From an uncultured bacterium (GTDB lineage Bacteria > SAR324 > NAC60-12): a DNA stretch of 64,000 bases. The position numbers and the translations under genes were made by a program. The stretch covers positions 11,867 to 75,866 of the forward strand of contig CBFIGY010000013.1 in assembly GCA_965662235.1 (NCBI GenBank). The letters are read 5' to 3'. This document shows, piece by piece, positions 13,575 to 45,911 of the stretch; positions within the stretch are counted from its first letter, which is position 1, and each line of letters opens with the position of its first letter. The notes beneath the pieces are model-generated. The model was not told the origin of the DNA. It was given only the letters and a program-made list of their open reading frames with translations, and ran no database searches.

Positions 13575-16217
13575 GTGTTCCAAGCGTTGGTTGCGTTTCG
13601 TCCTTCCATTCAGCAGCAACTTTTTTTTCTTGTCGTTGTGGTCAGCGGCGTCCTCTGCTTTGCGATCGGAGGATTGGTGCACTTCCGGACCATTCAGTAC
13701 CTCGAAACGGTGCAGACGGAAGACATGGCTCGGCTTCGCTCCCTTGTGGCTCAGGACATTGGTCGATTCTTTGAACAGCACCACCACCCGAACCTTCAGG
13801 TGGGCCTGCCCACTCCCGCCTCACTGACGAAAGCAGGCAACCCGCAGAACCGTCTGCTGCTTCCGGAAACCAACCCCACTGACCCACTGAAACAGTGGGA
13901 AGCGTTCAACGAGTTTGAGACCACGCTGCTGCTCAACCAGCCCGAGGTCGCCCAGGCCCTCAAGCTGGCGCAGCGCGGAGAAAGTCTGCTCATCAAGACC
14001 AGTGTTCCCTCGCAGCCCTTGACCTTCTACCTTCATGTCTTCCGGGACGTTGGCCGCCAGAGCAACCACCTTGGTCTCTACGCCTTCTATCCCTCCGACC
14101 TGACTCGCATCCTCCAAGAGCACCTCAACTTTGAACGTCAGGACAACGGGCTGGTGTTCTGGCTCCGGGACGCTCAGGGGCATCCGCTGGCCTATGCCGC
14201 CGACCCTGGAGAGTTTCATGAATCGACCCCGACGCTTCCGCCCCTTTCGACCTCGGTGAACCTGTTGATTGGGGAGACCCCGATTCAGGTTCCGGGCAGC
14301 ACCTGGACCCTGACCACTGTCCGGGACCGCTCCGAGATCCTAGAACAGGCCTGGGAAATGGTGGCTCCGCTCTGGGGACTGCTCGTTTTTGTCTTCCTCG
14401 TCTTTGCCAGCGGAGGTTTCTTCCTTTCCCGAAAGATTGGCGTCAGCGTCAAAAAGGTGGTGGCCCAGGCAGAACGCCTGTCTGCGGGACGTTACCTCAC
14501 CCCTCAGGATCAGCCCCTGACGCGCCAGAATGAACTCGACGCCATCTGTCAGGCCCTGCTGCAGATCTCCGAGGGGTTGCAGGTGATGGAACACGAAGCC
14601 ACCCGCTTCATTGACGGCGAGGCCACCCGGATTGTCCAACCGCGTTCCTGCGAGGACAGCATGGCCTCCACCTTCAACCGCATGATTGAGGTCATTCACC
14701 AACGAGAAGCCCGGCTGAAGGAACAGGGGGAGCTGAACGAAACCATCCTCAACTCCCTCACCGAGGCCATCTTCATTGTCCGCCCCGATGGACAGATTCA
14801 ACGCGCCAACCCCGTGGGCGCCTCCTGGCTCGAGGGGGCTCCCCACGACGGACCGCAAAACCTGATGAACCTCTTTGCCGATGAACAGGCGCTGCATGAT
14901 CAGGTTCTCAAGCAGGTGCAGCATCAGCTGGAACTCCTTCAGGCGCAACCGGACGCGTTTCAGCAGACTCTGGAGGCCATCCCCCTCCCCATTGTCGGCA
15001 TCGCCCCAGACAGTTCCATTCAGTTGACAAACAGCCGCTTCCTCCAGGCGACCGGCTACCCCGATGGCCTGCAGCAGCAGCCCTTTAGCACCCTTCTGCC
15101 CCCGGCGCTGCAAGGCAAGCATGATCAGTTTGTCCAAGAGTTCTTTGAGTCCCACCAGACGCGTTCCATGGGGCAGGGCATTCGCTTCCCCATCGTTACC
15201 GCCGGTGGCGTCACCCGGCACTTCGAGGTCGCCCTCATCTCGCTGCATAGCCATCGCCCCCTTGCCTTGGCGTTCCTCGCGGACCCTGCCACGCAGGAAC
15301 GTTGGGAGATCTTCCGACTCGTTTTCTTCTCCAGCCTCTTTGAGAAAACCGAGAGCCAGCGCATCCACCGGCTGCAGAAATCCAGCGGAGAAGTCCTTCC
15401 GGTCCTCATCTCCTCTGCGCTTCTCAACGATTCCTCCGGAACCATCACCGGTGCGGTTGTGGCCATGCGGGACCTGACGAGCTTCCAAAAGGTTCAGCGT
15501 CAGCTTCAGCAGTCAGCCAAACTGGCCTCGCTTGGTGAAATGGCCACCGGAGTGGCGCATGAGATCAACCAGCCCCTGACCTTCATCAATGGCGTCCTCT
15601 TCGACCTGGTGGAAGACCTCAGCGAAGGCGTGACGCTGGATCCGGAACCGACGCTGCTGGACCTCAAGGAGAGTCAACGTCAGGTGCAGCGCATCACCCA
15701 GATCATTCAGCACATGCGTCTGTTTGGACGGCACCACTCCGATGCCCGCCACGCCGTCACCCTGAGCGACATTGTCAACAACGCGCTCCTGCTGCTGGGC
15801 AAGAGCCTCCGGAACGCCAACATTGAAGTGGAGGTTGTGCTGCCTGAGGAGGAGGTGCTGGTGCAGGCCAACCCGATCCAGATGGAGCAGGTCCTCATCA
15901 ACCTCCTGCAGAACGTTGTGGACGCCATGACGGAGCTGACCACGCCACGCGAGCAGAAGGTCCGGATTGAGCTCAAGCGGGTGCGCAACAGTGGGGTGCT
16001 GACCCTTGAAGACAACGGCCCCGGCATTCCGGAAGACGTTCAGGAACGCATCTTCGACCCCTTCTTCACCACCAAGGGCCCCAGCAAGGGAACCGGACTG
16101 GGCCTTTCCATCTCCCTCGGCATCATTGAGGCGCACGGTGGGAACCTCCAGTGTCGTTCTCAGGAAGGCACCGGGACCACTTTTGAAATCACCCTTCCCC
16201 TGGGTTTTGAGTCATGA
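13575..16217 (+). CDS. membrane sensor histidine kinase with periplasmic domain, HAMP, PAS repeats, HisKA and HATPase (GTG start)
   Basis: Two TM segments flank a periplasmic region of about 230 aa. H-box [12 protein letters not shown] and G-box LEDNGPGIP...GTGLGLSIS are present. Confidence 0.85.
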
Positions 16218-17938
16218 CGTCTTCCCCTCCCAAGGTGCTGATCATTGATGATGAGCCACTGGTGCGCCGTACCATTGAGCGCGCCCTCCGGAACCTTGAG
16301 GTGCAGCTGCACGCCGCAGAGGATGGGGAGGCCGGGCTTGAGCAGATTCAGACGCTGGCGCCGGATGTGGTGGTTCTGGACCTACGCATGCCCGTCATGG
16401 ACGGTCTGCAGGTGCTGAAGCAGCTGGAGCTCCGCGCCGACTCTCCTCTCAATGTCATTGTCCTCACCGGACATGGCGATGACGATGAGCTCCGGGAGTG
16501 CTACGCCCTGGGCGCCCGGGCCTTCCTCAAGAAGCCCTTCAATCCCATTGAGATGCGGGCGCTGGTGCAGCAAAGCCTCGCCGTCCTGCACGCCCAGCAG
16601 GCCCTGCTGGAGGTCAATCAGCAGCTGGAGCAACGGGTGCTGGAACGGACCCGCGACCTGAACCAGCTCAATGACGCCTTTCGGCGCTTTGTCCCTCGGC
16701 AGTACCTGGAACGGGCCGAGGCGTCTGAGATGGAGGTCTTCCGGCCTGGGCACTTCCATGTGGAGCCGATGACGGTGCTGTTCCTCGACCTCCGGGACTT
16801 CACCAATCTGACGGAACCCCTCACGCCACTGGAGACGTTGGAGTTCCTCAACCGCTTCTTCGGCCTCCTGGTTCCTGTGATTGAGGCACACGATGGTTTT
16901 GTGGACAAGTTCATGGGCGATGGCCTGATGGCCCTGTTCGACCGGGAGGAAGGAGCCGCACATGCCGTGCAGGCAGCGTTGCAGATGCATGAGCAGCTGC
17001 AGCTCCACAATGCCGAGCGTGAGAGCCTGCAGCAGCGTCCGCTGCGGTTTGGAGTGGGCATTCACACCGGACTTGTGGTGGTGGGCACCATTGGATCCGA
17101 GTCCCGCCTCGACTCCACGGCCATCGGCGACACCATCAACTCTGCATCCCGCCTGGAGCAGCTGACCAAGCAGTACGGCAGCTGGCTGCTCATCACCGAA
17201 ACCACCCGCAAGGGGTTGGATCCACAGCACTTCCAGACCCGGATGGTGGACTGCATCCGCTTCCGGGGCAAACGCAACCCGCTCCGCATCTACGAGGTCT
17301 TTGACCACCTCAGCCGACCCGCACAGGACCTCCGGCACCAGCAGGCTCCGCTCTTCAACGAGGGCATGGCGCTCTATCAGCAAGGACAGTTTGAGCAGGC
17401 CCTAGAGGCCTTTGAACGTTGCCTGGCCGTGGATCCGGAGGACACGATTGTGGTGGAGTACCTCCGCCGCTGCCACACCTTCCTCAAGTACCCTCCGGAG
17501 CACTGGGAAGGGATCATGGACGCCAGCGACGAGCTGCTGCAACGGGCCCGACGCCGCACCGCCCCCCGGCTTCCCTTCATGATCCCAGCCTCTGTGCAGC
17601 GGAGCCCTCAACACGTCGTCTCCGCCCAAACCCTCGACCTCTCCCGCTACGGTCTGCGGCTTGCGTTGGAGGAAGCGGCCGGCATCGGCGAGATCCTCAT
17701 GGTCCGGATTGACCCCGATCACCTGCAGATGGAGCTGGGGCTGGGTCGTCCCTTTGAGATGCTCTCACAGGTGGCCTGGACCCGAGAGGCCCCCAGTGAG
17801 GCTCCAACGCTGCCCTGGCAGATTGGAGTGGAGTTTGTCACCCTCGATCCGGAGCAGGAGATCTGGCTCAACCGCGTCCTCATCAACCTCTCCGAAAACG
17901 CGCCTCCTTCCCCCTCTTCCGGAGTGGCTCATGCCTAA
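16214..17938 (+). CDS. response-regulator receiver + class III adenylate/guanylate cyclase + TPR-like segment + C-terminal PilZ-like domain
   Basis: REC motifs: VLIIDDEP, VVVLDLRMP, LTGHGD, LKKPF. CHD motifs: LFLDLRDFT...FVDKFMGDGLMALF...IGDTINSASRLE. C-terminus: RRRTAPRLPF (RxxxR) ... DLSRYGLRL (DxSxxG). The ATGA overlaps the upstream HK stop. Confidence 0.75.
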   Translation: MTSSPPKVLIIDDEPLVRRTIERALRNLEVQLHAAEDGEAGLEQIQTLAPDVVVLDLRMPVMDGLQVLKQLELRADSPLNVIVLTGHGDDDELRECYALGARAFLKKPFNPIEMRALVQQSLAVLHAQQALLEVNQQLEQRVLERTRDLNQLNDAFRRFVPRQYLERAEASEMEVFRPGHFHVEPMTVLFLDLRDFTNLTEPLTPLETLEFLNRFFGLLVPVIEAHDGFVDKFMGDGLMALFDREEGAAHAVQAALQMHEQLQLHNAERESLQQRPLRFGVGIHTGLVVVGTIGSESRLDSTAIGDTINSASRLEQLTKQYGSWLLITETTRKGLDPQHFQTRMVDCIRFRGKRNPLRIYEVFDHLSRPAQDLRHQQAPLFNEGMALYQQGQFEQALEAFERCLAVDPEDTIVVEYLRRCHTFLKYPPEHWEGIMDASDELLQRARRRTAPRLPFMIPASVQRSPQHVVSAQTLDLSRYGLRLALEEAAGIGEILMVRIDPDHLQMELGLGRPFEMLSQVAWTREAPSEAPTLPWQIGVEFVTLDPEQEIWLNRVLINLSENAPPSPSSGVAHA

Positions 17939-19067
17939 GAATCGCATCCTTCTTGTCGATGATGAGCGCATTGTGCGCGACACGGTCCGCCGAGCCCTGC
18001 GTCATGAGACGGTAGACGTGGCAGAAGCCGAAAACGGTCAAGAGGCCGCCACCCTCATTGAAAGCTGGAAGCCTGAGGTCATCTTCCTCGACCTGCGCAT
18101 GCCGGTGCTGGATGGCCTGGGGCTGCTTCGGCAACTGCACCTCACCTCTGACTCCCCCTTTCAGGTGATTGTCCTCACCGGACACGGAGACGATGACGAG
18201 CTCAAGGCGTGTTACGACCTAGGCGTCCGGGCCTTTCTCCGCAAGCCCTTCAACCGGATTGAGATCCGGTCCCTCATGCACCAGAGCCTCGCCTTCCTGA
18301 AGTCCCAGCGCCAGCTGCAGCTGGCCCTCTCGCTGCGTTCCGAGCAGTTGGAGCAAGCCGAGGCCGAGCTCTTTCAGGCCTCCAAGCTGACCCTCTTGGG
18401 GGAGTTTACAGCAAGCATGGTGGAAGACATCAGTCAGCCGCTGGGCCTCATCAGCCTCGCAGTGGAGAGCGGACGTCGGGCGCTGGAGCAGCAGAACTGG
18501 GACCGGATGGAACGGGTGATCGGACGTCTGGAGCAGGGAACCCAAAGCACGGTCGACCTCCTCAACCGCATGCGCGCCTTTGGTCAGCAGAAGCTGGAGT
18601 CCCCCTACCCCCTCCGGCTCAATGACGTCCTCAGGCAGGCCCTAGAATCCATGCAGCAGCCCCTGGAAGAGGCCCAGATTGAGCTCCACCTGGACCTGCA
18701 GCGTGACCTTCCCGAGGTGCATGCCGTGTCCGGACAGCTGGTGCAGGTCTTCACCCACCTGCTGCTCAATGCCAAGGAGGCACTCAGTCAAAAGCCAGCA
18801 ACCGCTCCCCGGACCCTCCACCTGAAGACCTGGAGCACCCCCACCGACATCAGGGCTTCTGTCCGAGACAACGGGGGCGGCATTCCGGAAGACCTCCTCC
18901 CTCACCTGTTTGAAACCCTCTACACCACCCCGGACAAGCAGGTTGGTGCCGGACTTGGACTCTCCATCAGCAAACGCTTGCTCGGACTTTATGAGGCTGA
19001 TATCATAATTAACAATTATCCCAATGAGGGAGCTGAATTTCTCCTCACGTTCCCTCTCAAATCCTGA
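17931..19067 (+). CDS. hybrid response regulator-histidine kinase (N-terminal REC, then HisKA/HATPase)
   Basis: MPKNRILLVDDERIV...IFLDLRMP...LTGHGDD...LRKPF, then coiled-coil and HATPase RDNGGGIPEDLLPHLFE...GAGLGLSIS. ATG at 17931 verified. Confidence 0.8.
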   Translation: MPKNRILLVDDERIVRDTVRRALRHETVDVAEAENGQEAATLIESWKPEVIFLDLRMPVLDGLGLLRQLHLTSDSPFQVIVLTGHGDDDELKACYDLGVRAFLRKPFNRIEIRSLMHQSLAFLKSQRQLQLALSLRSEQLEQAEAELFQASKLTLLGEFTASMVEDISQPLGLISLAVESGRRALEQQNWDRMERVIGRLEQGTQSTVDLLNRMRAFGQQKLESPYPLRLNDVLRQALESMQQPLEEAQIELHLDLQRDLPEVHAVSGQLVQVFTHLLLNAKEALSQKPATAPRTLHLKTWSTPTDIRASVRDNGGGIPEDLLPHLFETLYTTPDKQVGAGLGLSISKRLLGLYEADIIINNYPNEGAEFLLTFPLKS

Positions 19068-19122
19068 ATCTCCCGTCCCCAGCTCCTTCTGGAAGGAACC
19101 CCCACTTGTGGATGCACTTGTC

Positions 19123-19884
19123 ATGAAAAAGCCTAATTTATTGCTGGTGGATGATGATACCAACATGCTGGCCTCGCTTCAGGACCTCCTCGAAGACGAC
19201 TACACCGTCTTCATGGCCCACAATGGAGAGGCGGCGCTGGAGCTCCTTCGGACCTCTGGGATGGATTTTCCGGTGGTGGTTTCGGATCAGAGCATGCCCC
19301 GTCTGCAGGGGCACGAGCTGTTCCGCATCATTCACCGCGAGTTCCCTGACACCCTGGGGATTCTGTTTACGGGTTTTCCTGAGGTGGAGAGTCTGATTCA
19401 GGCGGTCAATGAGGGGCACATCTACGGATGCCTGCGCAAGGACTTCCAGTCGCAGGACCTGGTGCAGCTGGTCAACCGGGCCTACCAGTGGCAAGAGAGC
19501 CTCCGGGGCCTCAAGGCCCAGGCGGGACTGGGTGTCACCGATCAGCTCGAGCAGGAGCTGCAGCGGGCCTGGCGGTATGGCTTGGAGTATGTGGGGGTGT
19601 TGATCGACTGGTCGGGACCCGCAGCTCCGGAACGCCTGAAGCAGCGGTTGCGCAAAAGCGATGTGGTGGGAAACCTCAATCACTCCCGGAGCCTGGTTCT
19701 GCTGACGCACACGCCACTGGACAAGGCCAAGCCGGCGCTGGACCGCCTTCTGACCACCTGCCCCGAATGCCAACTGGGCATCCTCAAGCCCAGTTCGGAG
19801 CAAGAGCCTTCGGTTGAAGCCTACCTGCTCACCCTGAGCACTGAGCCGTTGCAAACGGTCACCACAGCCCTGACTGGAGCTTAG
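19123..19884 (+). CDS. response regulator: receiver domain plus uncharacterized C-terminal domain of about 120 aa
   Basis: REC motifs: LLLVDDDTNM, VVVSDQSMP, LFTGF, CLRKDF. The C-terminal region RAWRYGLEYVGVLIDW is not recognised. Confidence 0.65.
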   Translation: MKKPNLLLVDDDTNMLASLQDLLEDDYTVFMAHNGEAALELLRTSGMDFPVVVSDQSMPRLQGHELFRIIHREFPDTLGILFTGFPEVESLIQAVNEGHIYGCLRKDFQSQDLVQLVNRAYQWQESLRGLKAQAGLGVTDQLEQELQRAWRYGLEYVGVLIDWSGPAAPERLKQRLRKSDVVGNLNHSRSLVLLTHTPLDKAKPALDRLLTTCPECQLGILKPSSEQEPSVEAYLLTLSTEPLQTVTTALTGA

Positions 19885-24355: not shown

Positions 24356-25594
24356 TCAGTCCCAGAGCGTTTGCTTGGCAAAAAAATCAAGAATCTGGTT
24401 GAGCAGGGTCTGCTCCTCCGGAGCAACGTAAAGGAACTCAATGCCGAACTCCCCCCGCCCTTCCACGGAACGGTTCCAGATGGTGGTGCCAATCACCTCC
24501 AGCGGAGCCAGATCGGGAATCACCGGACGTCCCTGGTCCCAGTACACCGTCATCCGCACCGTCACTCCCACCGGAAGCGACTGCTCCGACTTGACCCGTG
24601 CCCCGGAGCGGGACAGGTCCAGCAGCTCTCCTGTGGAAAGGACCGTTTGCTTCTGGGTGCTCCGGCGCTCCTCAAACGTCACCGGGACCAGGACGTTGTA
24701 GCGCTCGGCTCGGCTGGTCCGGGCATTGAAGAAACGCTCTTCTGCTTCACAGAGCACCTCCTCGGAGTGCATGCCCTCCGGAGGGTTCTCCCGGAAGTAG
24801 TTGCAGCGCTTGATGTAGTTGATCGTCACCGGATCTTCAGGAAAACGCTCCAGACACTCCCGAAACGGGTGCAGCGCCTCCTCAAAGAGCCACGCCTTGT
24901 ACAGGGCCATTCCCTGAAAGAGCAGCATCTGCGTCTCACGCTTCACGGCCTGCAGCGCCTCAGAGTCGGTGGCAAACACCTCATACACATTCACCAGCCG
25001 CTGCCGGCCCCGAACCCGGAGCGTGTCCACCTCCCGGACCGCCTGGGCCTGCGTCTTCAGGGCGGCATGCGTGTGATGAGAAATGAGGATCCGGGAGCCA
25101 AACGACTTGGTCAGGCTTTCCAGACGTGCAGCCAAGTTGACGGCATCTCCCACCACCGAAAGGTGCTTGCCGCGCAGGTTCCCCACCCAGCGGTGTCCGA
25201 CAATCACAGGACCGGTGTTGATGCCAATGCCCGCCCGGAACTGCCGAGCCCGAGGGCGGGCGTTGAACTCATCCAACCGTTGCTGCATGGCCACTGCCGC
25301 TTGGACGGCATGGTCAGCGCTGAACTTTCCCTCAAAGAGGGCCATGAGGGCGTCGCCCATGAACTTGTCCACGACACCATGATGCCGCTCGACCTCGAGG
25401 ACCAGGGCATCAAAGATCGCATTGAGCATGCGGAACCCCGTCTTCGGGGTGGTGGACTCGACATGCGTGGTGTAGCCACGGATGTCCAGAAACAGAATGG
25501 ACAGCTTCATCTCGCGCAGAGGAGCGTTGTCTTCGCTCAGGGCGTCGGTGCTGGCAATCCAATGGAGTCCTCGTTTCCTAGAAGAATTCGACAT
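24356..25594 (-). CDS. class III adenylate/guanylate cyclase + TPR-like segment + C-terminal PilZ-like domain (paralogue of 16214-17938 without REC); start uncertain
   Basis: CHD: LSILFLDIRGYT...VVDKFMGDALMALFEG...VGDAVNLAARLE. C-terminus: DLSRSGARV (DxSxxG), beta-rich GIEFLYVAPEEQ. Confidence 0.7.
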   Translation of the reverse strand: MSNSSRKRGLHWIASTDALSEDNAPLREMKLSILFLDIRGYTTHVESTTPKTGFRMLNAIFDALVLEVERHHGVVDKFMGDALMALFEGKFSADHAVQAAVAMQQRLDEFNARPRARQFRAGIGINTGPVIVGHRWVGNLRGKHLSVVGDAVNLAARLESLTKSFGSRILISHHTHAALKTQAQAVREVDTLRVRGRQRLVNVYEVFATDSEALQAVKRETQMLLFQGMALYKAWLFEEALHPFRECLERFPEDPVTINYIKRCNYFRENPPEGMHSEEVLCEAEERFFNARTSRAERYNVLVPVTFEERRSTQKQTVLSTGELLDLSRSGARVKSEQSLPVGVTVRMTVYWDQGRPVIPDLAPLEVIGTTIWNRSVEGRGEFGIEFLYVAPEEQTLLNQILDFFAKQTLWD

Positions 25595-27372
25595 CGTCTA
25601 ATAGGTCTTCCTCGCTCGCCTCCGCTGGTGCGGTCTCCGCTTGCTTCTCAGCCGGGTCCCAGCCCTCAAACAGTCGACTCAGGACCTCCTGAAAGGGTTC
25701 CTGCAGACAGGACTGATGAATGGTCCGTTCCACATCTCGGGAGTAGAGGTGTTCCAGCTCTGAGAGATCCAGGGGGGAGGGAACCTCGGTTTCCGGTTCC
25801 AGCGTGTGTTCCAGCTCGGCGTGGAGGAGTTCAATGAGTTGATACGTGAGGCGGACGCGGAGTTCCACCTGTTCCCCAAAGGAAAGATTTTCCAACAAGG
25901 TGAGGATTCCGCCAGCTAATTTCCACGTCTCCCGTGACACGGCCCCCGTCCGGGCCAGCATGGCCACGCTTGCCTCCCGGAATCCCTGCAGGCGCTCATT
26001 GAGCGATGCCCGGGTCCGGCCTACGGATTCGAGCTGCTGATCCAGAGACTGCTCCAGCGCTTCCTGGAAGCCAGCAATCAGCTCCAGCCCCTCCTGCAGG
26101 GTGGAGACTTCTCGAGACAGCAGGGTCTGTGCTTCCTCAGAACGGTGGATGACCTCATGGCTCAGTTTTTCCAGGTGCAGCGACTGCTCTCCGGCATCAT
26201 TCGGAAGCAGCATCGCGTTCACGGACATGCGGCGCAGGTCGTTTCCAATGTCCTCAATGGACTCCAGGTGCTCCCGGGTCAGGCGCAGCCGTGCATTGAC
26301 CTCCTCCATGGCCTCCAGCACACGCCGCGTCACCCCTTCACTGCGTCGGAGCGTCTGCAGCAGCGCCTGCAGGGCCAGGTCAAGCTGCCGGACGCCGGCA
26401 CTCAACGGACCTTCCAGCCCCAGGATTTCTCCGACTCGGGAAACCTGATTCTGCGCCCGCTCCGAAATGTCCCGGAACCGGGCGTCCACCTGCTGCTCCA
26501 CCTCATCGGTCTTGTGGAGCACATACGCCAACTGCCCCAGCTGAATTTCCAGACACTGCTTGGCCCAACGCCGGGACGCCACCGTCCCGTCTTCCAGGCG
26601 CGTTCCTGCGAGGAGGAGGGCCTGAGAAACGTGCTCCATCTGCTGACGGGTGATGTCATGGAACTGCACCGCCATCACCACCTGGTTGAGGTAGGGGACG
26701 ATTTCCTCTGAGTCCTTGCGGATCCAGCTGCAGGAGCTGACCACCTTGCGCATCAGGCTGCGCATCTCCCGGACCCCATCTTCCACCTGACGCTGCAGGG
26801 CCTCTGCTTCCAGAGGCATCAGTTCGCTCAGGCGGACCTGCCGCATGACGGTAAAGAACTCCTCCTGTGCCTGTTCCGCGCTCCAGGTCATGGAAAGCCG
26901 GGTGTCGGCCATGTGTCCGGCGAGGGTGGTGATGCCCTCAGACAGCTGAACAAAAGCCCGGGGGTGCGAATGCTGCTGCCCCTGCAGGTTCATGAGGACC
27001 CCGATGATGCGGACCGCGTGGGCAAGGCGCATGAGGAAGCCCCCCACCTGTTCCAGAGACTGGGTCCGTCCGGTCAGGTCGTGCAGACTGGGCAGGGTCC
27101 CGGTGAGCAGGGTGGTGCTGTCTCCCACCTCCCGTCCTCCTTCCCGGAACAGCGTCTCTACCTCATCAAGCTGCCACCCCTCGCCCGACTGAATCCGGGC
27201 TTCGACGTCGCCCACTTCAGCCGAGTTGTTCTTGAACTGGGTGGAGACGCCGTAGATCTGGTCTCCGAGCAAGAGGAAGTCCTGCTCCGTTTCCGCAGAG
27301 ATGCTCATCAGTCCCTCTGCAGCCTGGCGCAGGAGGGCGGTTCCGGAGGTCAAGTCAAAGGAGGCGGTCATG
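25578..27372 (-). CDS. coiled-coil protein, possibly a divergent soluble chemoreceptor-like protein (start placed at MTASFDL)
   Basis: Q/L/E-rich heptad-rich sequence. Segment RRMSVNAMLLPNDAGEQSLHLEKLSHEV weakly recalls the MCP tip [21 protein letters not shown]. Acidic C-terminus EEDLLDDVEFF. Confidence 0.4.
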
Positions 27373-27378
27373 GTCTCT

Positions 27379-27999
27379 TCAATCCCACAAATCGACATCC
27401 ACAGGACGCTGCGGACGTTGCTGTTTCTCTCGTTCACGCTGAACCTCCCGGATGAAGCTCCGGTCGCGCTCAACGACTTCAGACACTTCCGTACGCTGGA
27501 CCTTCCGGACGTACACGGAATAGTCCCGCGAGTCAAAGTAAATGACGCGGCCAAACACCCCCTCTAGGTCGGCCGCCACCACCGGAATGCGGTCCTCTTG
27601 AAGGAAGTTCACCACAAAGCGGGCGTTCCGGCCCCCAACGTCCAGCATGGGCGCCGCGTGTTGGTTGATCTGAAGCACCGCCGCGCCGCCAAAGACCTTG
27701 GCCTTGAGGTGCTTGCGCTGGGCGCCCAGTTTCATCATCCGGTTGATGAGCAGTTCCATGGCGTTGATGCCGTATCGTCCAGCATCACTCTTGAGCATGA
27801 GGTCCTGACTGCTGTACGACTGCGTGCTCAGCAGAAAGTGGTTCATGCCCACAATGTGATTGACCGGATCGTACAAACAGGCCGAGACACACGACCCCAG
27901 CAAGGTGATGAGCACCACGTCTTTTTCAGACGCATGATACTCACCCGGCTGTACGCGTATCTTCATGCGACTGTCGAACAGTTTCGGAGCTCTTGACAT
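27379..27999 (-). CDS. cheD: chemoreceptor glutamine deamidase CheD
   Basis: ITLLGSCVSACLYD (CheD catalytic Cys motif) ...VGMNHFLL...KVFGGAAVL. Confidence 0.8.
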   Translation of the reverse strand: MSRAPKLFDSRMKIRVQPGEYHASEKDVVLITLLGSCVSACLYDPVNHIVGMNHFLLSTQSYSSQDLMLKSDAGRYGINAMELLINRMMKLGAQRKHLKAKVFGGAAVLQINQHAAPMLDVGGRNARFVVNFLQEDRIPVVAADLEGVFGRVIYFDSRDYSVYVRKVQRTEVSEVVERDRSFIREVQREREKQQRPQRPVDVDLWD

Positions 28000-31443: not shown

Positions 31444-33984
31444 TCAGAGGGACTCCTGAGACGGCTGAGAAGGCTCAAACGAGCTCGGTAAGTCATCCAC
31501 CCACGCCTGCAACGCCTCCTGACTGGCCTGTGGGAGCTCAAGAAATCGGTTGACGTTACGGTCCTTGAGCATGTCCAAGGGGACGGTAAACTCGGTGATC
31601 AGACGATCATCGGTGTTGCGTTCCAGGGGGTTCAGCGTCTTGAGGTACCGGACCACTTCATGGTCCCCCATCAGGAACAGCTGAGGTAAGAACGTTTCAG
31701 GCTTCAGGCCAAAACGCTTCAAGGTGGCCGCCACCTGCGGACGGGAGGCACGACGGACCACATCGGCGTACTTGAGTCGGAAGTCGGGAGACTTGGAAGC
31801 AATCATCAGCAGGTCTCCCGGAACCGTCGAGCGCCACAGGGACACCTGGGGAAACACGGAACGGAGCGTGTAGATGAGGATCTTCAGGTTCCGGGGAGAC
31901 ATGTGGTAGGCCGGAAGCCACTGGGCCAGCATGCCGTTGGCCGACAGGCTCTGCTCCACCTGCTCGTACCATTCCAGCGAAAGCAGACTCGACTCTCCCT
32001 TGATCCAGGGATTCGAGGGCTGTGAGATGATCAGGTCAAACGGTTCCTTCTCACTGATGAGGAAGCTCCGGGCATCCCGAGCCACCACCGTGGAGCGGGC
32101 GTCATGAAGAACACCGTGGTTGTAGCGCTCAAAGAAGGAGGCTGCCCGGACCACAGCAGGCGAGATTTCCGCGGTGATCAGGGTTTCTGGATCGTGCAGC
32201 AACGCTGTGCCACTGGTGATGCCACTGCCCAGGCCCACCACAAACACGCGCTCCGGATTGGGGTGCAGGATCATCGGAAGCGAAGCCAACAGGGTCTGGG
32301 TGGGCATGTCGCCACTTCCCCCGGCACTCGCATCCACCTTGCCGTTGATCATCAGGCTCCGTTTGCCCTCGGCACTGTCCATGACCGCCACGGTTGCCAC
32401 TGGGCCCATCTCGTAGTAGACCATCTCAAACTTCCGCATCGCGGCTTCCCACACCAGCGACTGCTTCGCCTGCGACACATCCTCTCGCTCCAGGGCCATC
32501 AGGTTGTAGTTCCGGGAGGAGTCGTAGTACTGGTTGGCATAGAGGTAAACACCACTGCTCATCAACCGAGGCGACCACGGCTGATTCAGCAACAGGCTCA
32601 ACGCCGCCACAAAGGTCGTGGGAATCGCCCACCGGAGCCGAAGCCCCGGGGTCCACTCCGGGTGACTCATGAGGATCGCTAGGCCGATGGCAAAGCTGAT
32701 CACCGCTCCCAGCGTGACGGTGCCCTGCATGCCCATGCCGGGAACCAGGACCACTCCGGCGAGCGCGGCTCCGATCATGGCGCCCATTGTGTTGACGCCG
32801 AACACACGGCCCACGGCCTTGCTCGGAGAACGCGTGTTGGCCCCCAGTGCCGCACAGACCGTGGGGAACATCATTCCCATGGCAATCGTGGGGACCAGCA
32901 TCACCAGTGCGGCCAAAAGGAAACGCAGCACCTGCACGCCTCCCCAGGTGTCCAACAGCTCGCGGTGCAGCGACAGGTACAGGAACGGCAACCGCTCCAT
33001 GAGGATGTTTGCAACGAGCACCGATACGGCCAGCACCAGCTGCAGGAGCACATAGAGGGTCCGGGGCGAAAGACGTTGGTCCAGGTGCCGGTAGGCGTAG
33101 CTCCCAATGGCAATGCCCAGGAGAAACGTTGCCAAAATGGTGGTGAAGGCATACGACGTGGTTCCCAACAGCATGCTCAGGGTCCGGTTCCAGGCAACCT
33201 GGTACCCGAGCGCAACCGCGCCAGAGAGGCCGTAGCTCCAGAAGATGAGCCGAGCATTGAAGGAAAGACGGGGCAGCGGCTCCTCATGCAGCGGCAGGGT
33301 CGAATCGGCTCCCCCCTTGCGCTGGTGCAGCATCCAGAATCCCACCCCAATCAGGAGGTTGAGGGAGGCGGCAATCCAGGTGGTCCCAGAGTGTCCCAAA
33401 AACCGGAGCAGCAGGTACCCGGTCACCAGGGTTCCGGTGAGGGCCCCAAAGGTGTTGGCAGAGTACAGCCGCGCCGTGTTGACCGCCAGCAGACGCTCAG
33501 TCCGGGTCAGGTACCGGCTCATCAGCGGCAGCGTTCCTCCCATCAAGAACGTCGGTGGCGCCAGCAGCAGCACCCCAAAGAAGAAAGGCACCAGGGTCCG
33601 GGACTCGGCCAGGAGCGGAAACTGCTGATACAGCATCGCATGCAGCGCCTGGGCGCCCTCCACCAGAAAGGGGAAGAGGAGGGCGTAACCGCCAATCCCC
33701 CCTTCGAGGAAGGCATACGTTCGAGCCAGCTGAGTTTCCCCCCAGAGGTCCCCCTGCTTCCCAAACCACCAGCCCCCCCAAGCCAGCCCCCCCATGAAGC
33801 CCGTCAGGATCACCGTCACTGCGGTTGTGGACGACCCTAAAAAGTTGGTCAGGGTCCGGATCCAGATCACCTCATACGCGAGGCTGGCGGCCCCGGAACC
33901 AAAGAAGAACAGCGTCAGCCACTGCTCAAGCTTCAGGCCCAAGAGGGTCGCATTGAGGGGGGTGCGGGCGGGGGAGGGTGTCAT
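31444..33984 (-). CDS. fused polytopic membrane domain + spermidine synthase-like (aminopropyltransferase fold) protein
   Basis: About 12 predicted TM helices in the N-terminal 450 aa. C-terminal PABS-like fold: ERVFVVGLGSGITSGTAL...DLIISQPSNPWIKGESSLLSLEWYE. Confidence 0.75.
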   Translation of the reverse strand: MTPSPARTPLNATLLGLKLEQWLTLFFFGSGAASLAYEVIWIRTLTNFLGSSTTAVTVILTGFMGGLAWGGWWFGKQGDLWGETQLARTYAFLEGGIGGYALLFPFLVEGAQALHAMLYQQFPLLAESRTLVPFFFGVLLLAPPTFLMGGTLPLMSRYLTRTERLLAVNTARLYSANTFGALTGTLVTGYLLLRFLGHSGTTWIAASLNLLIGVGFWMLHQRKGGADSTLPLHEEPLPRLSFNARLIFWSYGLSGAVALGYQVAWNRTLSMLLGTTSYAFTTILATFLLGIAIGSYAYRHLDQRLSPRTLYVLLQLVLAVSVLVANILMERLPFLYLSLHRELLDTWGGVQVLRFLLAALVMLVPTIAMGMMFPTVCAALGANTRSPSKAVGRVFGVNTMGAMIGAALAGVVLVPGMGMQGTVTLGAVISFAIGLAILMSHPEWTPGLRLRWAIPTTFVAALSLLLNQPWSPRLMSSGVYLYANQYYDSSRNYNLMALEREDVSQAKQSLVWEAAMRKFEMVYYEMGPVATVAVMDSAEGKRSLMINGKVDASAGGSGDMPTQTLLASLPMILHPNPERVFVVGLGSGITSGTALLHDPETLITAEISPAVVRAASFFERYNHGVLHDARSTVVARDARSFLISEKEPFDLIISQPSNPWIKGESSLLSLEWYEQVEQSLSANGMLAQWLPAYHMSPRNLKILIYTLRSVFPQVSLWRSTVPGDLLMIASKSPDFRLKYADVVRRASRPQVAATLKRFGLKPETFLPQLFLMGDHEVVRYLKTLNPLERNTDDRLITEFTVPLDMLKDRNVNRFLELPQASQEALQAWVDDLPSSFEPSQPSQESL

Positions 33985-42454: not shown

Positions 42455-44614
42455 TTAAAGTAACAGGCTCAGGTCTTCACCCGTGAGGACCAGTAAGGGG
42501 GCTCCCGTGCCCATAACGATGCACCCTTCAAAGCCTCCCTCTGCCAGGAAGGGGTGCAGGAAGGGACGGATGACGCCCTGTGTGAACTTGAGGATCCGGT
42601 CAGCATGGAAGGCCACCTGCTGCCGACGGGAATCTTCGAGCACCAGGATCACCCCCGTCTGAGGCACCGGAGGCGCCGATCCCAGACCCAATCGGGCCTG
42701 CAGGTCCAGGTAGTGGCAGGTGATGCCCCGGTGCTTGAACACCCCCTGCTCTGGAACCGTGGGGTGCAGCGACAGGTCCACAATCTCCCGGATGACGTCG
42801 TAGCGGATGGCCACGGTTCGGCCGGCCAGTTCCACCACCAGCACCTTGCGGGACTGCAGTCCCAGCCGGAGGGGGCAGAACAGGGTGATCTCAGATCCCT
42901 TGCCCAGCTCAGAGGTAATGCGCACGTCACCACCATGGTGCCGGATGGTGCTGGCCACCACATCCATGCCAACTCCCCGTCCTGACACGTTGGTTACCTT
43001 CTCCGCCATGGAGAATCCAGGCGCCATCAGCAGCTCAAACGCCTCCTCATCGGTGTACTCCGTGTTGGGCTGCGCCAGTCCACGCTCCAGGGCCTTGCTC
43101 AGCACCCGCTGAACGTCAATGCCGTTTCCGTCATCAGAGACCGTGAGGCGCAGCATCTCCGGCTCCAGCCGAGCTGCCACCCGCAGGTTCCCCACTTCTG
43201 ACTTGCCCCGCTGCTTACGGACGTCCGGGGTTTCAATGCCATGGTCAAGGGAGTTCCGGATCAGGTGCACAAACGGGTCACCCAGCAGATCAATGACCGA
43301 GCGGTCCACCTCCAGGTGCTCCCCGCGGAGCTCCAGGGAAACCCGCTTCCCGAGGTCCCGCTCCAGCTGCCGAAGCATCCGGGGCAGGCGGTCAAACAGT
43401 TCACTCAGGCGAGAGGCCCGCAGCTGCTGCAACGACTCCTGCAGGCCACCAAACCGCTGCTGCACCCGCTGCACCGCGCCTCGCATCTCCATCGACATCC
43501 GAGGGTCCAGGCTCTGACGCGTCTCCTGTTCCAAGGCGTCCAGGTGGTTCAACTCCGTCACCACCTCTTCAGCATGGCGGGTGAACTCATTGAGGTCGTC
43601 CATGCTGATGCGCATCATCTCCCGACGCGTGGCCTGTGCCTCGTTGGTGGCCGCAGGAGCGCTCGGTGCTGCCGGGGTCCGAGCCGAGCCAATCCCGAGC
43701 ATCTCCAGAGCAAACTCGCTGGCGTCATGAGACCGGACGTTGCACTTGCGTTCCAGGCCCTCCACCCAAAACTGTTTCCAGAACTGCTCCACCATGTCCG
43801 GAACCAGACGGGCCAAGGCGCTGAGCGAATCCCAGTCCAGCACCGGCTCCGGAGCATCCGGGTAGAGCAGCTTGTCCATCTGGAGCACCAGCGGCTCGTA
43901 GCGTTCAATGCCATCCGGAGGCAGCCCGGCTCCTGCAGCAATCAGCTCCTCCAGTCCAATCAGCACCTCCCGGACTGCGGGGGTGATGTCCTCGCCCTCC
44001 GACGTAAGCACCGACTCCAGCAGCACGCTCCGGACGACCACATCCACCTCCAGGGACTGCTTCTTGGTGAAGTACGTTTCCAGCGTGTCTAGGGCATCCA
44101 GCACCTCCTGAGGCGGAGGCGCCGCGGCGCTGCGGGCCCGTCCCGACTCGGCCTGTTCCACCAGGTTCCGGAGGCGGTCGGCCAGGGGCTCCACCTTCTC
44201 CTCCGAAGGCTCTTCCTTGTTGAGGTTCTGGAGGAAGCGCTCAAAGCGGTCATCCAGCTTCATCTCCTGCTGCCGCATGCGCTCCAGCGCATCCTGAAGC
44301 AGGTCCACGCCCTCCAGCACCCGAGACTGTTCACTGTCCCGTAGCGCCCGGCTCTGGCCCTTGAGCTGCTGCAGGTAGCTTTCAAAGACGTGCGCAAAGG
44401 ACTGCAGGGCCATGAGGTCGAAGAAACCAGCGGTTCCCTTGACGGTGTGGACCCAGCGGAAGATCGCCGCCAGGGTCTCAATCGGCTGTTCCTCGAGTCG
44501 CTCCAGATCCTCCTGAATCAGCTCCAGACCATTGAGGGATTCCTCCACAAAGGCCTGAATGATCTCCGGATCAAAGAAGGATGCGCTGATGTCGGCAGAG
44601 ACGGTTTCGGTCAT
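42455..44614 (-). CDS. cheA: second chemotaxis histidine kinase CheA (start at MTETVSADIS; the upstream part of the ORF is Gly/Pro-rich and non-coding-looking)
   Basis: HPt: FRWVHTVKGTAGFFDL. HATPase: FVHLIRNSLDHGIE...SGRGVGMDVVASTIRHHGG. C-terminal CheW domain. Its start overlaps the stop of the upstream gene by 4 nt. Confidence 0.85.
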   Translation of the reverse strand: MTETVSADISASFFDPEIIQAFVEESLNGLELIQEDLERLEEQPIETLAAIFRWVHTVKGTAGFFDLMALQSFAHVFESYLQQLKGQSRALRDSEQSRVLEGVDLLQDALERMRQQEMKLDDRFERFLQNLNKEEPSEEKVEPLADRLRNLVEQAESGRARSAAAPPPQEVLDALDTLETYFTKKQSLEVDVVVRSVLLESVLTSEGEDITPAVREVLIGLEELIAAGAGLPPDGIERYEPLVLQMDKLLYPDAPEPVLDWDSLSALARLVPDMVEQFWKQFWVEGLERKCNVRSHDASEFALEMLGIGSARTPAAPSAPAATNEAQATRREMMRISMDDLNEFTRHAEEVVTELNHLDALEQETRQSLDPRMSMEMRGAVQRVQQRFGGLQESLQQLRASRLSELFDRLPRMLRQLERDLGKRVSLELRGEHLEVDRSVIDLLGDPFVHLIRNSLDHGIETPDVRKQRGKSEVGNLRVAARLEPEMLRLTVSDDGNGIDVQRVLSKALERGLAQPNTEYTDEEAFELLMAPGFSMAEKVTNVSGRGVGMDVVASTIRHHGGDVRITSELGKGSEITLFCPLRLGLQSRKVLVVELAGRTVAIRYDVIREIVDLSLHPTVPEQGVFKHRGITCHYLDLQARLGLGSAPPVPQTGVILVLEDSRRQQVAFHADRILKFTQGVIRPFLHPFLAEGGFEGCIVMGTGAPLLVLTGEDLSLLL

Positions 44615-45045
44615 GTGCTCCCCTTTTGCACCTCCCGAGCTAGTTGGAGCCAGTAGTTCCGGCGTCGGAGCATGGTCTGGATGGCCTGCCCAAAGGGCTC
44701 CCAGTCCAGTGGAAAGAAAAACAGGTAGTCCGCGCCCTGTCGGTTGCTCCGGGCCACCGCCTCCAGGTCCCGCTCCCGGGCCAGGAAGATGAGGCTGGTG
44801 GAAGGCGCCAGCTGCCGCGCCCGCTTCTTCCACTCGAAGCCATCGAAGCTGCTGCTGTTGATCTCAATGATCAGCAGGTGGCAGGGGTTGCGGCTGAGGA
44901 AGCTCATGAAGCCCTTGGGCGTGTGGTGGTAGATCACCTCAAAGTCCTGCTTGAAGAAGGACTTCAGCTCCTCATTGGTCTCGGTTTCGGCCAGGGTGGC
45001 CACCACAAACGAGGGTTGAGGGGCGTCACTCATGCGTCCTCCCAT
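44611..45045 (-). CDS. pseudo-receiver (degenerate REC-fold) protein
   Basis: Beta-alpha pattern of a receiver (FVVATLAE ... HLLIIEINSS ... SLIFLA ... DYLFFFPLDWEPF), but the acidic pocket, phospho-Asp and Lys are replaced. Confidence 0.5.
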   Translation of the reverse strand: MGGRMSDAPQPSFVVATLAETETNEELKSFFKQDFEVIYHHTPKGFMSFLSRNPCHLLIIEINSSSFDGFEWKKRARQLAPSTSLIFLARERDLEAVARSNRQGADYLFFFPLDWEPFGQAIQTMLRRRNYWLQLAREVQKGST

Positions 45046-45911
45046 CGCTTGGTCATGGTGATGCGGTTGCCGCTGTCGCTCCAGTCCACCGAACTCATGA
45101 TGCCCTTGATGAGCAGCAGCCCCCGCCCATGCGTCTGGGTCGGACTGGCGTTGACGTCACCGCGGTAGGCAGAGGGGTCAAATCCGGGGCCTTCATCTTC
45201 CAAGGAGACCCGAAGCATCTCAGCATCCATGTCCACCTGAATCCGGACCTGCCGGTCCTTGTAGTCAGGATCCTCTGAGCGGGTTCCCACCATGGCTTCA
45301 AACCGTTCCCACGACTGGTCCTTGAGGGAGGACGGGAGTTCCAGGTTCCCGTGGATGATGGAGTTCGTGAGCGACTCCTGCAGGCAGAGGTCAATGAGGT
45401 GCACCGGGACCTGGTTGCTTTCACAGAGGGGACGGTAGAGGGACCGGAGCGTCTGCACCGTGGCGGCAATCAGGTCCGGACGACTGGGCACCAGCAGGCG
45501 CAGCTTGAGGTTGCTGACGGCCAACAGCTCCGTCTGGCGGCTGCTTTCCTGCTGCCGCACCTGCAGGCGCTCCAACGCTGACTGGAGGACATGGAAGGCA
45601 AAGGGCTTGAGGATCAGGTCCACGGCGCCGAGCTTCAGGGCTTCCACAGAAGTCTGCACGTCACCGTGCCCGGTGATGAGCAGCGTCGGAGTGTTCATGC
45701 GCGACCGGACCATGCGTCGCAGCAGCTCCATGCCGTCCATGACGGGCATGCGGATGTCTGAAAGCACGGCGTCAAAAGGAGGCCCAGCTTTCAGCAGCGC
45801 CAGGGCTTCTTCGCCATTGCCTGCAGACGCCACTTCATAATCGGCATCCTCCAGCAACTCTACCAATGAGTCCCGCCATCCGGGCTCATCGTCCACCACC
45901 AGCAGTCTCAT
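45030..45911 (-). CDS. response-regulator receiver fused to an RsbW/RsbT-like GHKL serine kinase (anti-sigma-factor-type HATPase_c_2)
   Basis: REC: MRLLVVDDEPGWR...VLSDIRMPVMDG...LLITGHGD...LILKPF. C-terminus: LCLQESLTNSIIHGNLE...DEGPGFDP...GRGLLLIKGIMSSVDW. Confidence 0.7.
   Translation of the reverse strand: MRLLVVDDEPGWRDSLVELLEDADYEVASAGNGEEALALLKAGPPFDAVLSDIRMPVMDGMELLRRMVRSRMNTPTLLITGHGDVQTSVEALKLGAVDLILKPFAFHVLQSALERLQVRQQESSRQTELLAVSNLKLRLLVPSRPDLIAATVQTLRSLYRPLCESNQVPVHLIDLCLQESLTNSIIHGNLELPSSLKDQSWERFEAMVGTRSEDPDYKDRQVRIQVDMDAEMLRVSLEDEGPGFDPSAYRGDVNASPTQTHGRGLLLIKGIMSSVDWSDSGNRITMTKRWEDA

Follow-up and report, generated by a model that had tools for sequence, protein, structure and literature searches.

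The window, a stretch of 64 kb, contains a gene that encodes a receiver domain (REC), a class III nucleotidyl cyclase, a TPR stalk and a PilZ domain in a single polypeptide (the target), located second in an operon with genes for a sensor histidine kinase and two other receiver proteins (Table 1). All claims of the initial annotation that are open to computation were borne out. The open reading frame is as it stated, from an ATG at 16214 to a TAA at 17936-17938, and contains every peptide that had been quoted from it. The reported overlap with the upstream kinase gene is real (kinase TGA at 16215-16217, within ATGA), and the two genes are translationally coupled. The kinase, in which an outer domain of about 220 residues lies between two N-terminal hydrophobic segments and is followed by HAMP, two PAS, HisKA and HATPase_c domains, is probably the cognate kinase of the target. 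The downstream gene begins at an ATG (17931) that creates an eight-nucleotide overlap with the end of the target gene, and its receiver and that of the target are close paralogs with 57% identity over 123 residues. The fourth orf as listed overlaps the preceding gene, and its ortholog in a syntenic locus (L081) was called shorter, at 251 residues; its product gave a weak GGDEF-like lead. The syntenic locus, represented by another assembly and a Logan contig, keeps the whole cluster including the target and its paralog, with proteins that are 83-88% identical. The identical 574-residue protein was also found on three independent contigs in NCBI and ENA.

Table 1. Coordinates of the target gene, its encoded domains and motifs, and related genes of the window
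Feature	Position	Strand	Details
Upstream sensor histidine kinase	13575..16217	+	880 aa; Pfam domains; kept in syntenic locus L081
REC - S-helix/CTE - class III cyclase - TPR - PilZ gene (target)	16214..17938	+	574 aa; ortholog P0002 83% identical, in syntenic locus
Receiver domain, residues 8-118	16235..16567	+	Pfam Response_reg 100.5 bits (cut-off 30.2)
Long signalling helix and pre-cyclase element	16568..16759	+	AF2 secondary structure; 8-sequence alignment
Class III (IIIb-type) nucleotidyl cyclase catalytic domain, residues 183-355	16760..17278	+	Pfam Guanylate_cyc 70.2 bits (cut-off 21.9)
Three-helix TPR-like stalk, residues 368-425	17315..17488	+	Pfam TPR_1/TPR_2 ~34 bits (cut-offs 27-28), motif 380-410; modelled helices
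PilZ domain, residues 441-561	17534..17896	+	Linker helix, six-stranded beta-barrel, C-terminal helix; Pfam 447-556
RxxxR motif, R448-T-A-P-R452	17555..17569	+	After R446 and R447; end of TPR-to-barrel linker
[D/N]hSxxG motif, D475-L-S-R-Y-G480	17636..17653	+	On barrel
REC-HisKA-HATPase_c protein, downstream	17931..19067	+	378 aa; Pfam
Operon gene 4: REC and ~130-aa C-terminal domain	19024..19884	+	Pfam: Response_reg only
Paralog: REC-less cyclase-TPR-PilZ	24356..25594	-	412 aa; Pfam Guanylate_cyc 73.5, PilZ 37.4 bits

The receiver is canonical, as described initially: it matches the Pfam profile and possesses D12, D13, T85, K107 and the phospho-acceptor D56 (codon 16379-16381). In the AF2 model, an unbroken helix (residues 111-157, containing RVLERTRDL) runs on from receiver helix 5 and joins the receiver to the cyclase. 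It is followed by a short conserved pre-cyclase element, FRRFVPRQYLER, in which F159, V160, P161 and L165 are invariant in an alignment of eight sequences and residues 162-170 are modelled as a helix. We take these two segments to be an S-helix and a cyclase transducer element.

The catalytic domain matches the Guanylate_cyc profile above its curated cut-off, is modelled with pLDDT above 90, and has a complete set of cyclase residues: the metal-binding aspartate pair (D192 and D236), base-specifying K232 and T302, transition-state N309 and R313, and phosphate-binding R298. D192, D236, T302, N309 and R313 do not vary across 38 homologs; among members that bear a PilZ domain, D192, K232, N309 and R313 are present in 20 of 20 and D236 in 19 of 20, the metal aspartate having been lost in P0230. 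The closest solved catalytic domain is PDB 2W01 (E 3e-27, 180 residues aligned), the guanylyl cyclase Cya2, in which all metal-binding and transition-state residues match; both metal aspartates, the asparagine and the arginine are likewise matched in the alignment to 6FHT, the engineered adenylyl variant of this Cya2-type cyclase domain. However, 2W01 has different regulatory domains and has glutamate and glycine at the base-specifying positions occupied by K232 and T302 in the target. The choice between adenylyl and guanylyl cyclase, left to these positions by the initial annotation, falls on adenylyl: lysine and threonine are the base-specifying residues of ATP-using enzymes, and the target has every residue of the class IIIb adenylyl cyclase set.

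C-terminal to the cyclase, the helical segment that had been called TPR-like is confirmed by Pfam, with the refinement that there is just one TPR motif within its three helices. The stalk ends at a conserved junction, YLRRCHTFLKYPPEHWEG, and leads into a domain that scores as PilZ (46.0 bits, E 7e-12, cut-off 22.5). An AF2 model of the TPR-PilZ module (pLDDT 86.5) consists of the six strands and C-terminal helix, whereas the full-length model places the PilZ domain at low confidence (pLDDT 40-75 for residues 440-574). When the module was compared to the PDB with Foldseek, all 48 of the top 48 matches were PilZ domains, most of them solved with c-di-GMP bound, including BcsA, YcgR, MapZ, Alg44, VCA0042, MotI, MrkH and PlzA (TM 0.65-0.78 against isolated PilZ chains). 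Both c-di-GMP signatures noticed at the outset, RTAPR and DLSRYG, have the canonical form. Among family members, R452 is conserved in 21 of 21 and R448 in 15 of 21; D/N475 and G480 are found in all 21, and S477 in all except P0210. Because these residues of the second motif and R452 are maintained while PilZ domains of the family are only 21-35% identical, the pattern fits selection on ligand contact. The motifs of the target are not a chance match, since they are conserved at that level of identity and lie about 28 residues apart on the predicted barrel.

The target is not a singleton: about 24 related cyclase-PilZ sequences were found in databases of billions, and all named family members are from SAR324 MAGs. 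One of them is the REC-less paralog 6.4 kb from the target gene. It matches target residues 186-556 collinearly (36% identity, BLASTP E 6e-72), retains DxSxxG, and has an ortholog in the syntenic locus. The N-terminal sensors of the family are REC, REC-PAS-PAS, GAF, cNMP-binding or none; the conserved evolutionary unit is cyclase-TPR-PilZ, with REC as one of several interchangeable sensors, as would be expected of a regulatory output cassette. In a simple neighbor-joining bootstrap, the target pair had no stable position inside the PilZ-bearing clade.

Close known counterparts of the target include receiver-regulated cyanobacterial cyclases such as CyaC. The PilZ-less REC-cyclase-TPR regulators that resemble the target (e.g., P0004-P0016 of about 451 residues, including P0014 of Magnetococcus sp. 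MYC-9, and L003 of Ca. Magnetaquicoccus) are 32-37% identical to it over about 75% of the protein, and have in common with it the receiver, signalling helix, F.RFVP..FL element, class IIIb cyclase, TPR tail and presumed activation by His-Asp phosphotransfer. They end directly after the PP.DW.G junction that closes the stalk; therefore, they have one input and the target has two.

The nearest models for the second input are known PilZ proteins. In BcsA, binding of c-di-GMP frees an autoinhibitory interaction and turns the enzyme on, and in YcgR, PlzD and MotI the ligand at the linker drives domain closure. Among solved structures, BcsA (PDB 4HG6, 4P00, 5EJ1) matches the TPR-PilZ module best, with about 18% identity in the aligned region. 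Like the target, it has a canonical PilZ domain C-terminal to its catalytic domain with an RxxxR-bearing linker between them, but it is a membrane glycosyltransferase that lacks a receiver and a TPR stalk, not a soluble dimeric nucleotide cyclase; its release of autoinhibition serves as the template for the proposed mechanism. YcgR, PlzD (VCA0042) and MotI (PDB 5Y6F, 2RDE, 5VX6) share with the target the PilZ barrel, both motifs, and the location of RxxxR on an inter-domain linker, whereas their N-terminal partner is a PilZN barrel and their output is motor-protein binding rather than catalysis; their linker-driven closure provides the proposed route of the signal to the stalk and cyclase.

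The interpretation preferred here, at somewhat better than even probability, is that the target works as a soluble adenylyl cyclase with two inputs, combining His-Asp phosphorylation with c-di-GMP. The upstream membrane kinase would phosphorylate D56, and probably also the receiver encoded by the next gene, which is 57% identical to that of the target, resulting in a branched pathway. Active sites of class III cyclases lie across the homodimer interface, and phosphorylation of D56 would alter how the helical linker packs and thereby how the two cyclase domains of the dimer are aligned. With c-di-GMP bound between the DxSxxG loop of the barrel and the RxxxR arginines in the linker from TPR to barrel, the linker would stiffen and the barrel would swing with respect to the stalk and cyclase, in the manner of YcgR/PlzD domain closure or release of BcsA autoinhibition, so that cAMP output would depend on both phosphorylation and the level of c-di-GMP. 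We infer this gating of the cyclase by c-di-GMP; by analogy with BcsA there is a slight preference for activation through relief of autoinhibition, inhibition being nearly as plausible.

Many PilZ proteins act through c-di-GMP-dependent binding to partners. The PilZ domain might therefore bind c-di-GMP yet serve for docking or localisation, tethering the cyclase to a partner or site such as a chemosensory array with no allosteric change of rate. The closest structural matches include the partner-binding systems MapZ-CheR1 and YcgR, the TPR motif adjoining PilZ is a typical protein-interaction element, and the paralog is located inside a convergent Che-like operon with CheR, CheB, CheD, CheA, CheW and an MCP. 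However, the target gene itself belongs to a two-component operon, no conserved candidate partner was found in the neighbourhoods of distant members, and in every member PilZ is covalently joined to the cyclase through the conserved junction, which favours intramolecular control as in BcsA; docking without allostery is accordingly rather unlikely.

Alternatively, the PilZ-like domain may no longer bind a ligand and may be only a structural or autoinhibitory tail of an adenylyl cyclase controlled by phosphorylation. Consistent with such a loss, the first arginine of RxxxR is missing from all five REC-less members of 412 residues, including the paralog in the window, and no GGDEF, EAL or HD-GYP gene was found within the 64 kb, c-di-GMP synthesis by the source organism being assumed. 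In the target, though, both canonical motifs are accompanied by the preceding pair of arginines and a hydrophobic residue after the aspartate, and in at least 15 members the motif residues stand out as the best-conserved sites in a domain that otherwise evolves quickly, making a non-binding PilZ domain distinctly improbable.

A product other than cAMP, either cGMP or the cCMP/cUMP of Pycsar antiphage systems, is very unlikely. Besides the guanylyl cyclase identity of 2W01, whose glutamate and glycine are replaced by lysine and threonine in the target, this possibility is prompted by PADLOC PycC profiles, which match the target at 65-91 bits (maximum 90.8). Since ordinary cyclases linked to PAS, GAF, 7TMR, hemerythrin or REC score 57-96 bits with the same profile, the match is one that signalling cyclases give in general. 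PycC and the target have the class III cyclase fold in common, but the specificity residues differ: CTP use by EaPycC is determined by R142 and Q144, four and two residues before the second metal aspartate (PMC11224242), where the target has K232 and M234. Nor does the target have a defence context, and no cNMP-binding TIR or transmembrane effector was found in the adjoining genes.

The reading of the fusion as an artefact of assembly or gene calling, or as a nonfunctional, decaying gene, raised by its source in an apparently metagenome-assembled contig and by an exact lookup that returned no record of the gene, is effectively refuted by the protein's identity on three contigs, the fully syntenic 83% ortholog, the unbroken frame that retains every functional residue, the occurrence of the same junction in about 24 sequences, and residue conservation in the family.

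The cyclase-PilZ design is rare and uncharacterised: the initial annotation knew of no characterised example, and a literature search likewise turned up no paper on a fusion of PilZ with a class III cyclase. Bd1971 of Bdellovibrio (PMC6717892) similarly makes a direct link between the cAMP and c-di-GMP systems within one polypeptide, but with unrelated domains (cNMP-binding and EAL phosphodiesterase) and in the opposite direction, sensing cAMP and degrading c-di-GMP, whereas the target would sense c-di-GMP and make cAMP. If the dual-input interpretation of the target is true, a cyclase with two built-in switches may directly link two second-messenger systems.

The open reading frame called by the initial annotation at this locus is real and encodes 574 residues; all peptides quoted there are found in the translation, with the signature residues at the expected places. 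The protein (hereafter the REC-cyclase-PilZ protein) exceeds the curated Pfam-A thresholds for all four of its domain types, including those for PF00211 and PF07238, the two profiles that had been proposed for checking its identity. Its receiver is canonical as claimed, with the acidic pocket (D12/D13), the phosphoacceptor D56, T85 and K107 all present, and in the AlphaFold model and the alignment one unbroken helix (residues 111-157) joins the receiver to a conserved FRRFVP..YL element preceding the cyclase. The segment described as TPR-like does form three helices (residues 368-425) in the models, but only one TPR motif scores. A TPR repeat domain is a tandem array of at least three helix-turn-helix repeats of 34 residues, and the term TPR-like helical stalk suits the segment better than TPR array. 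The preferred reading of the protein, to which we give an even chance, is that c-di-GMP binds the PilZ domain and directly switches an adenylyl cyclase, with phosphorylation of the receiver as a second condition, and that this logic function is reported as cAMP.

Features of the REC-cyclase-PilZ protein and of its surroundings (nucleotide positions in the window; residues of the protein or, for the last two rows, of the modelled TPR-PilZ module)
Feature	Position	Strand	Residues	Score or content
Upstream membrane kinase	13575-16217	+		880 aa; two hydrophobic segments, HAMP, two PAS, HisKA, HATPase
REC-cyclase-PilZ protein	16214-17938	+	1-574	
Response_reg (PF00072)	16235-16567	+	8-118	Pfam-A 100.5 bits
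Guanylate_cyc (PF00211)		+	183-355	Pfam-A 70.2 bits, cut-off 21.9
TPR motif		+	380-410	Pfam-A ~34 bits
PilZ (PF07238)		+	447-556	Pfam-A 46.0 bits, E 7e-12, cut-off 22.5; profile positions 2-100 of 102
Downstream REC-kinase	17931-19067	+		378 aa; REC-HisKA-HATPase
Receiver of downstream REC-kinase	17946-18314	+		
Fourth operon gene	19024-19884	+		REC and unassigned C-terminal domain
Che-like operon	19881-42088	-		
REC-less cyclase-TPR-PilZ paralog	24356-25594	-		412 aa
Orphan protein	25578-27554	-		658 aa; no Pfam match
Spermine-synthase-like protein	31444-33984	-		846 aa
Second CheA-like kinase	42455-44833	-		Hpt-HATPase-CheW
REC and RsbW-like serine-kinase domain protein	45030-45911	-		
SpoIIE/PP2C phosphatase	45908-47110	-		
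Six beta-strands			94-179	AF2 module model
C-terminal helix			182-198	AF2 module model

Both signatures by which the C-terminal domain had been called PilZ are in place: RxxxR is R448-TAP-R452, with R446 and R447 just before it, and DxSxxG is D475-L476-S477-R-Y-G480, 23 residues past R452. The latter motif has been refined to [D/N]hSxxG, where h is hydrophobic (10.1101/814665). A single-sequence phmmer search of the PilZ region against the PDB returned noise only, and the full-length AlphaFold model, made as a monomer, is weak in this region because only four of the 38 aligned sequences covered it. The model of the TPR-PilZ module, built on a 15-sequence alignment, has a pLDDT of 86.5 and consists of three TPR-like helices, a linker helix with RxxxR at its end, six beta-strands and one C-terminal helix, in agreement with the canonical PilZ topology of Galperin and Chou (10.1101/814665); RxxxR is thereby located on the linker between the stalk and the barrel. 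The best 48 Foldseek matches of the module model in the PDB are all PilZ domains, mostly solved with c-di-GMP bound, and include BcsA, YcgR, MapZ, Alg44, VCA0042/PlzD, MotI, MrkH and PlzA (TM-scores of 0.65-0.78, relative to isolated PilZ chains). With its profile score, both motifs, the barrel and the C-terminal helix, the domain can be retained as PilZ and is predicted to bind c-di-GMP. The close structural match to MapZ-CheR1, together with the CheR gene that adjoins the paralog, would suit a PilZ domain that acts as a c-di-GMP-dependent module for docking a partner, a role that we consider unlikely. For direct switching of the cyclase, phosphorylation of D56 would shift the helical linker and reposition the cyclase dimer, and c-di-GMP would clamp the RxxxR linker to the barrel, turning the PilZ domain relative to the stalk and the cyclase. 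The domain closure of YcgR/PlzD and the release of autoinhibition in BcsA are models for the proposed reorientation. Since phosphorylation would move the cyclase dimer and c-di-GMP would reorient the PilZ domain, cAMP output would be set by both inputs; activation is slightly favoured as the direction of the c-di-GMP effect.

A search of 5.8 billion clusters recovered the protein itself, its 83%-identical ortholog P0002, P0003 of SAR324 and the cNMP-binding-cyclase-PilZ protein P0019. The TPR-PilZ module, searched against 1.84 billion representatives, added P0138 (a 214-aa fragment with the PilZ part only), P0167, P0187, P0196, P0210, P0217, P0220, P0222, P0230 and P0248; in the Pfam architectures of this added set, cyclase-PilZ is preceded by REC, by REC-PAS-PAS, by GAF, by an unassigned N-terminus or by no further domain. 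Six more (P0276-P0281) were added by a search with the paralog, and one more locus, L085, came out of 241 million metagenome records scanned for a pattern. In the exhaustive module search a match was informative only if it formed one full-length stretch, and the family total of about 24 sequences is a lower bound because multi-TPR proteins swamped that search. Architecture counts from stored Pfam results also undercount the family, since precomputed Pfam missed the PilZ tails of P0282 (719 aa, RRRMTR...DASSNG) and P0288 (585 aa, KRSKR...NVSQSG), in which the motifs are at the family's usual positions. All members with an organism name are SAR324 MAGs. The NCBI labels of the family's proteins go no further than 'response regulator', 'PilZ domain-containing protein' or 'PAS domain S-box protein'.

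Several members and loci have features of their own. P0019 (664 aa, metagenome / SAR324) and P0288 have a cNMP-binding domain ahead of cyclase-TPR-PilZ and a shifted arginine motif (KRATR and KRSKR, respectively); to judge from their architecture, they could unite cAMP feedback and c-di-GMP sensing in one protein. P0230 (598 aa), with Gly for the second metal Asp, Thr for the receiver Lys and intact PilZ motifs, is probably a catalytically dead pseudo-cyclase. In SAR324 assembly GCA_015232315.1 (locus L083, 1002-2276 and 9809-10300), a cytochrome-b (Ni_hydr_CYTB)-PilZ fusion is found near a REC-cyclase-PilZ gene, with a YajQ-family gene immediately downstream; some YajQ-family members bind c-di-GMP. 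The 323-kb contig of this locus appears also to carry P0167.

R452, G480 and D/N475 are found in all 21 members compared, S477 in 20 and R448 in 15, at an identity of only 21-35% between their PilZ domains and that of the REC-cyclase-PilZ protein. Contact residues conserved at such low identity are the pattern that selection on ligand contact would produce, and beside it a PilZ domain that is merely a ligand-blind tail seems quite improbable. The first arginine of RxxxR is missing specifically in five REC-less 412-aa proteins, namely P0276-P0279 and the paralog within the window. The paralog aligns in collinear order to residues 186-556 of the REC-cyclase-PilZ protein (36% identity) and keeps DxSxxG as DLSRSG, with a degenerate RxxxR (ARTSRAER). 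Because this arginine is lost, c-di-GMP binding by the 412-aa proteins is doubtful; in the same subgroup R298 is replaced by G or H.

In a neighbour-joining tree built on the cyclase-TPR core, the proteins with PilZ cluster, and the sole true PilZ-less member inside the cluster is P0283. Strict monophyly of the PilZ set as defined by Pfam fails in this tree; of its three 'PilZ-less' intruders, P0282 and P0288 are in fact PilZ-bearing. The basal position of the target pair is not robust. The PilZ-less REC-cyclase-TPR relatives terminate exactly at a PP.DW.G junction. The simplest reading is that PilZ was acquired once and that the N-terminal sensors were exchanged later.

The solved structure nearest to the cyclase domain is 2W01 (E 3e-27), the guanylyl cyclase Cya2, and the next is its chimeric derivative 6FHT. 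The catalytic metal-binding Asp pair that the cyclase assignment presupposed is present, D192 and D236 being aligned with the pair of 2W01 and 6FHT; the transition-state residues N309 and R313 lie within GDTINSASRLE, matched in the same alignment by the motif GD.VN...R.E. Both aspartates, T302, N309 and R313 are invariant in the family alignment of 38 sequences, and the cyclase residues also include the phosphate-binding R298. Among 20 PilZ-bearing members, D192, K232, N309, R313 and T/S at position 302 are universal, and D236 is found in 19. The choice between adenylyl and guanylyl cyclase, which the initial annotation had left to the substrate-specifying residues, falls on the adenylyl type, with K232/T302 in place of the Glu/Gly of 2W01; 6FHT has Lys at the first of these columns. 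Lys with Thr/Ser is the class IIIb adenylyl-cyclase signature, guanylyl cyclases having Glu with Gly/Cys/Ser. Because the catalytic residues are invariant and the Lys232/Thr302 signature is present, the domain is predicted to be active and ATP-specific, and a product other than cAMP is very improbable.

The cyclase domain also matches the PADLOC profiles of the Pycsar cyclase PycC, at up to 90.8 bits. This match is generic, since the profile gives 57-96 bits for seven unrelated signalling cyclases whose sensors are PAS, GAF, 7TMR, hemerythrin or REC. In EaPycC the specificity for CTP is determined by R142 and Q144, which precede the second metal Asp by four and two residues (PMC11224242); K232 and M234 occupy these positions here. 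No Pycsar effector (TM or TIR with a fused cNMP-binding domain) was found beside the gene in the window, where its neighbours are only kinases and receivers. With a generic score, differing specificity residues and no adjoining effector gene, an antiphage function of the Pycsar kind was rejected.

The gene belongs to a translationally coupled operon on the plus strand. As previously noted, its ATG overlaps the TGA of the upstream kinase gene (ATGA), and its last 8 nt, stop included, are shared with the start of the next gene. The linkage to the presumed cognate kinase holds in that the overlap is kept at L081, the syntenic locus of the ortholog, phosphotransfer itself being predicted; such linkage is not kept around distant family members. 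The receiver is 57% identical to that of the downstream REC-kinase and 79% to that of P0002, versus 19-46% to the receivers of other family members. Given these identities, the adjacent receivers are local paralogs and probably have the upstream kinase in common, as if a receiver had been duplicated locally and one kinase now fed a branched phosphorelay. The only PDB match for the C-terminus (~130 aa) of the fourth gene product is the GGDEF protein 7E6G, at a non-significant E of 1; the alignment is collinear, with RKSD at the position of the I-site RxxD and NHSRS in place of GGEEF. This C-terminus could be a degenerate GGDEF-type c-di-GMP receptor, and a hidden GGDEF was not adopted on the strength of one such match. 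No gene with a GGDEF, EAL or HD-GYP domain was detected by Pfam in the 64-kb window. GC content stays at about 0.60 throughout the window, also around the locus; an origin as a foreign island, of which it gives no sign, was rejected. Gram-negative features of the window include Kdo transferase and MinC/MinD-type division genes.

Convergent with this operon is a long Che-like operon that encodes, in order, CheW-like, CheA, MCP and CheW proteins, the spermine-synthase-like protein, CheR, REC-REC-HATPase, CheB, CheD, the orphan, the cyclase-PilZ paralog, a REC-REC-kinase, a molybdopterin-oxidoreductase-like protein, a kinase and a single REC, two of the products being REC-REC-HATPase hybrids. The full arrangement, including both cyclase-PilZ paralogs, is kept in GCA_038150265.1. 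The operon resembles a chemosensory pathway whose output is something other than motility, possibly cAMP, with a logic akin to that of Wsp/WspR. Beside it, the second CheA-like kinase, the RsbW-like protein and the phosphatase have the gene content of a partner-switching-type module.

All parts of the REC-cyclase-PilZ protein are well-known signalling modules, among which domain shuffling is common. [quoted passage not shown] To our knowledge, the known links between them are all indirect or opposite in direction. A transcriptional link is the control of cyaA by c-di-GMP/FleQ in P. putida (PMC8125075), and the opposite direction is represented by cAMP-sensing c-di-GMP phosphodiesterases such as Bd1971 (PMC6717892). 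The statement of the initial annotation that no REC-cyclase-PilZ protein has been characterised is upheld: in full-text literature, with most subscription journals outside its coverage, no example was found, nor any account of a fusion between PilZ and a class III cyclase, and the word 'cyclase' is absent from the PilZ survey preprint (10.1101/814665).

The practical weight of the finding is limited by the rarity of the family, so far known from uncultured lineages only (SAR324 and unnamed MAGs). The cyclase-TPR-PilZ cassette could serve as a compact, engineerable two-input module, since it is found behind several different sensors. With a c-di-GMP receptor built in, a cyclase would link c-di-GMP to cAMP directly and fast, in a form easily testable in vitro with one soluble protein, and class III cyclases would join the short list of enzymes under the control of a fused PilZ domain. 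If the preferred reading is true, the protein would provide the first route by which c-di-GMP acts on cAMP synthesis directly and post-translationally, the paralog would be the output of a chemosensory-like pathway, and both would belong to a small family of PilZ-cyclases with an exchangeable N-terminal sensor (REC, PAS, GAF or cNMP-binding).
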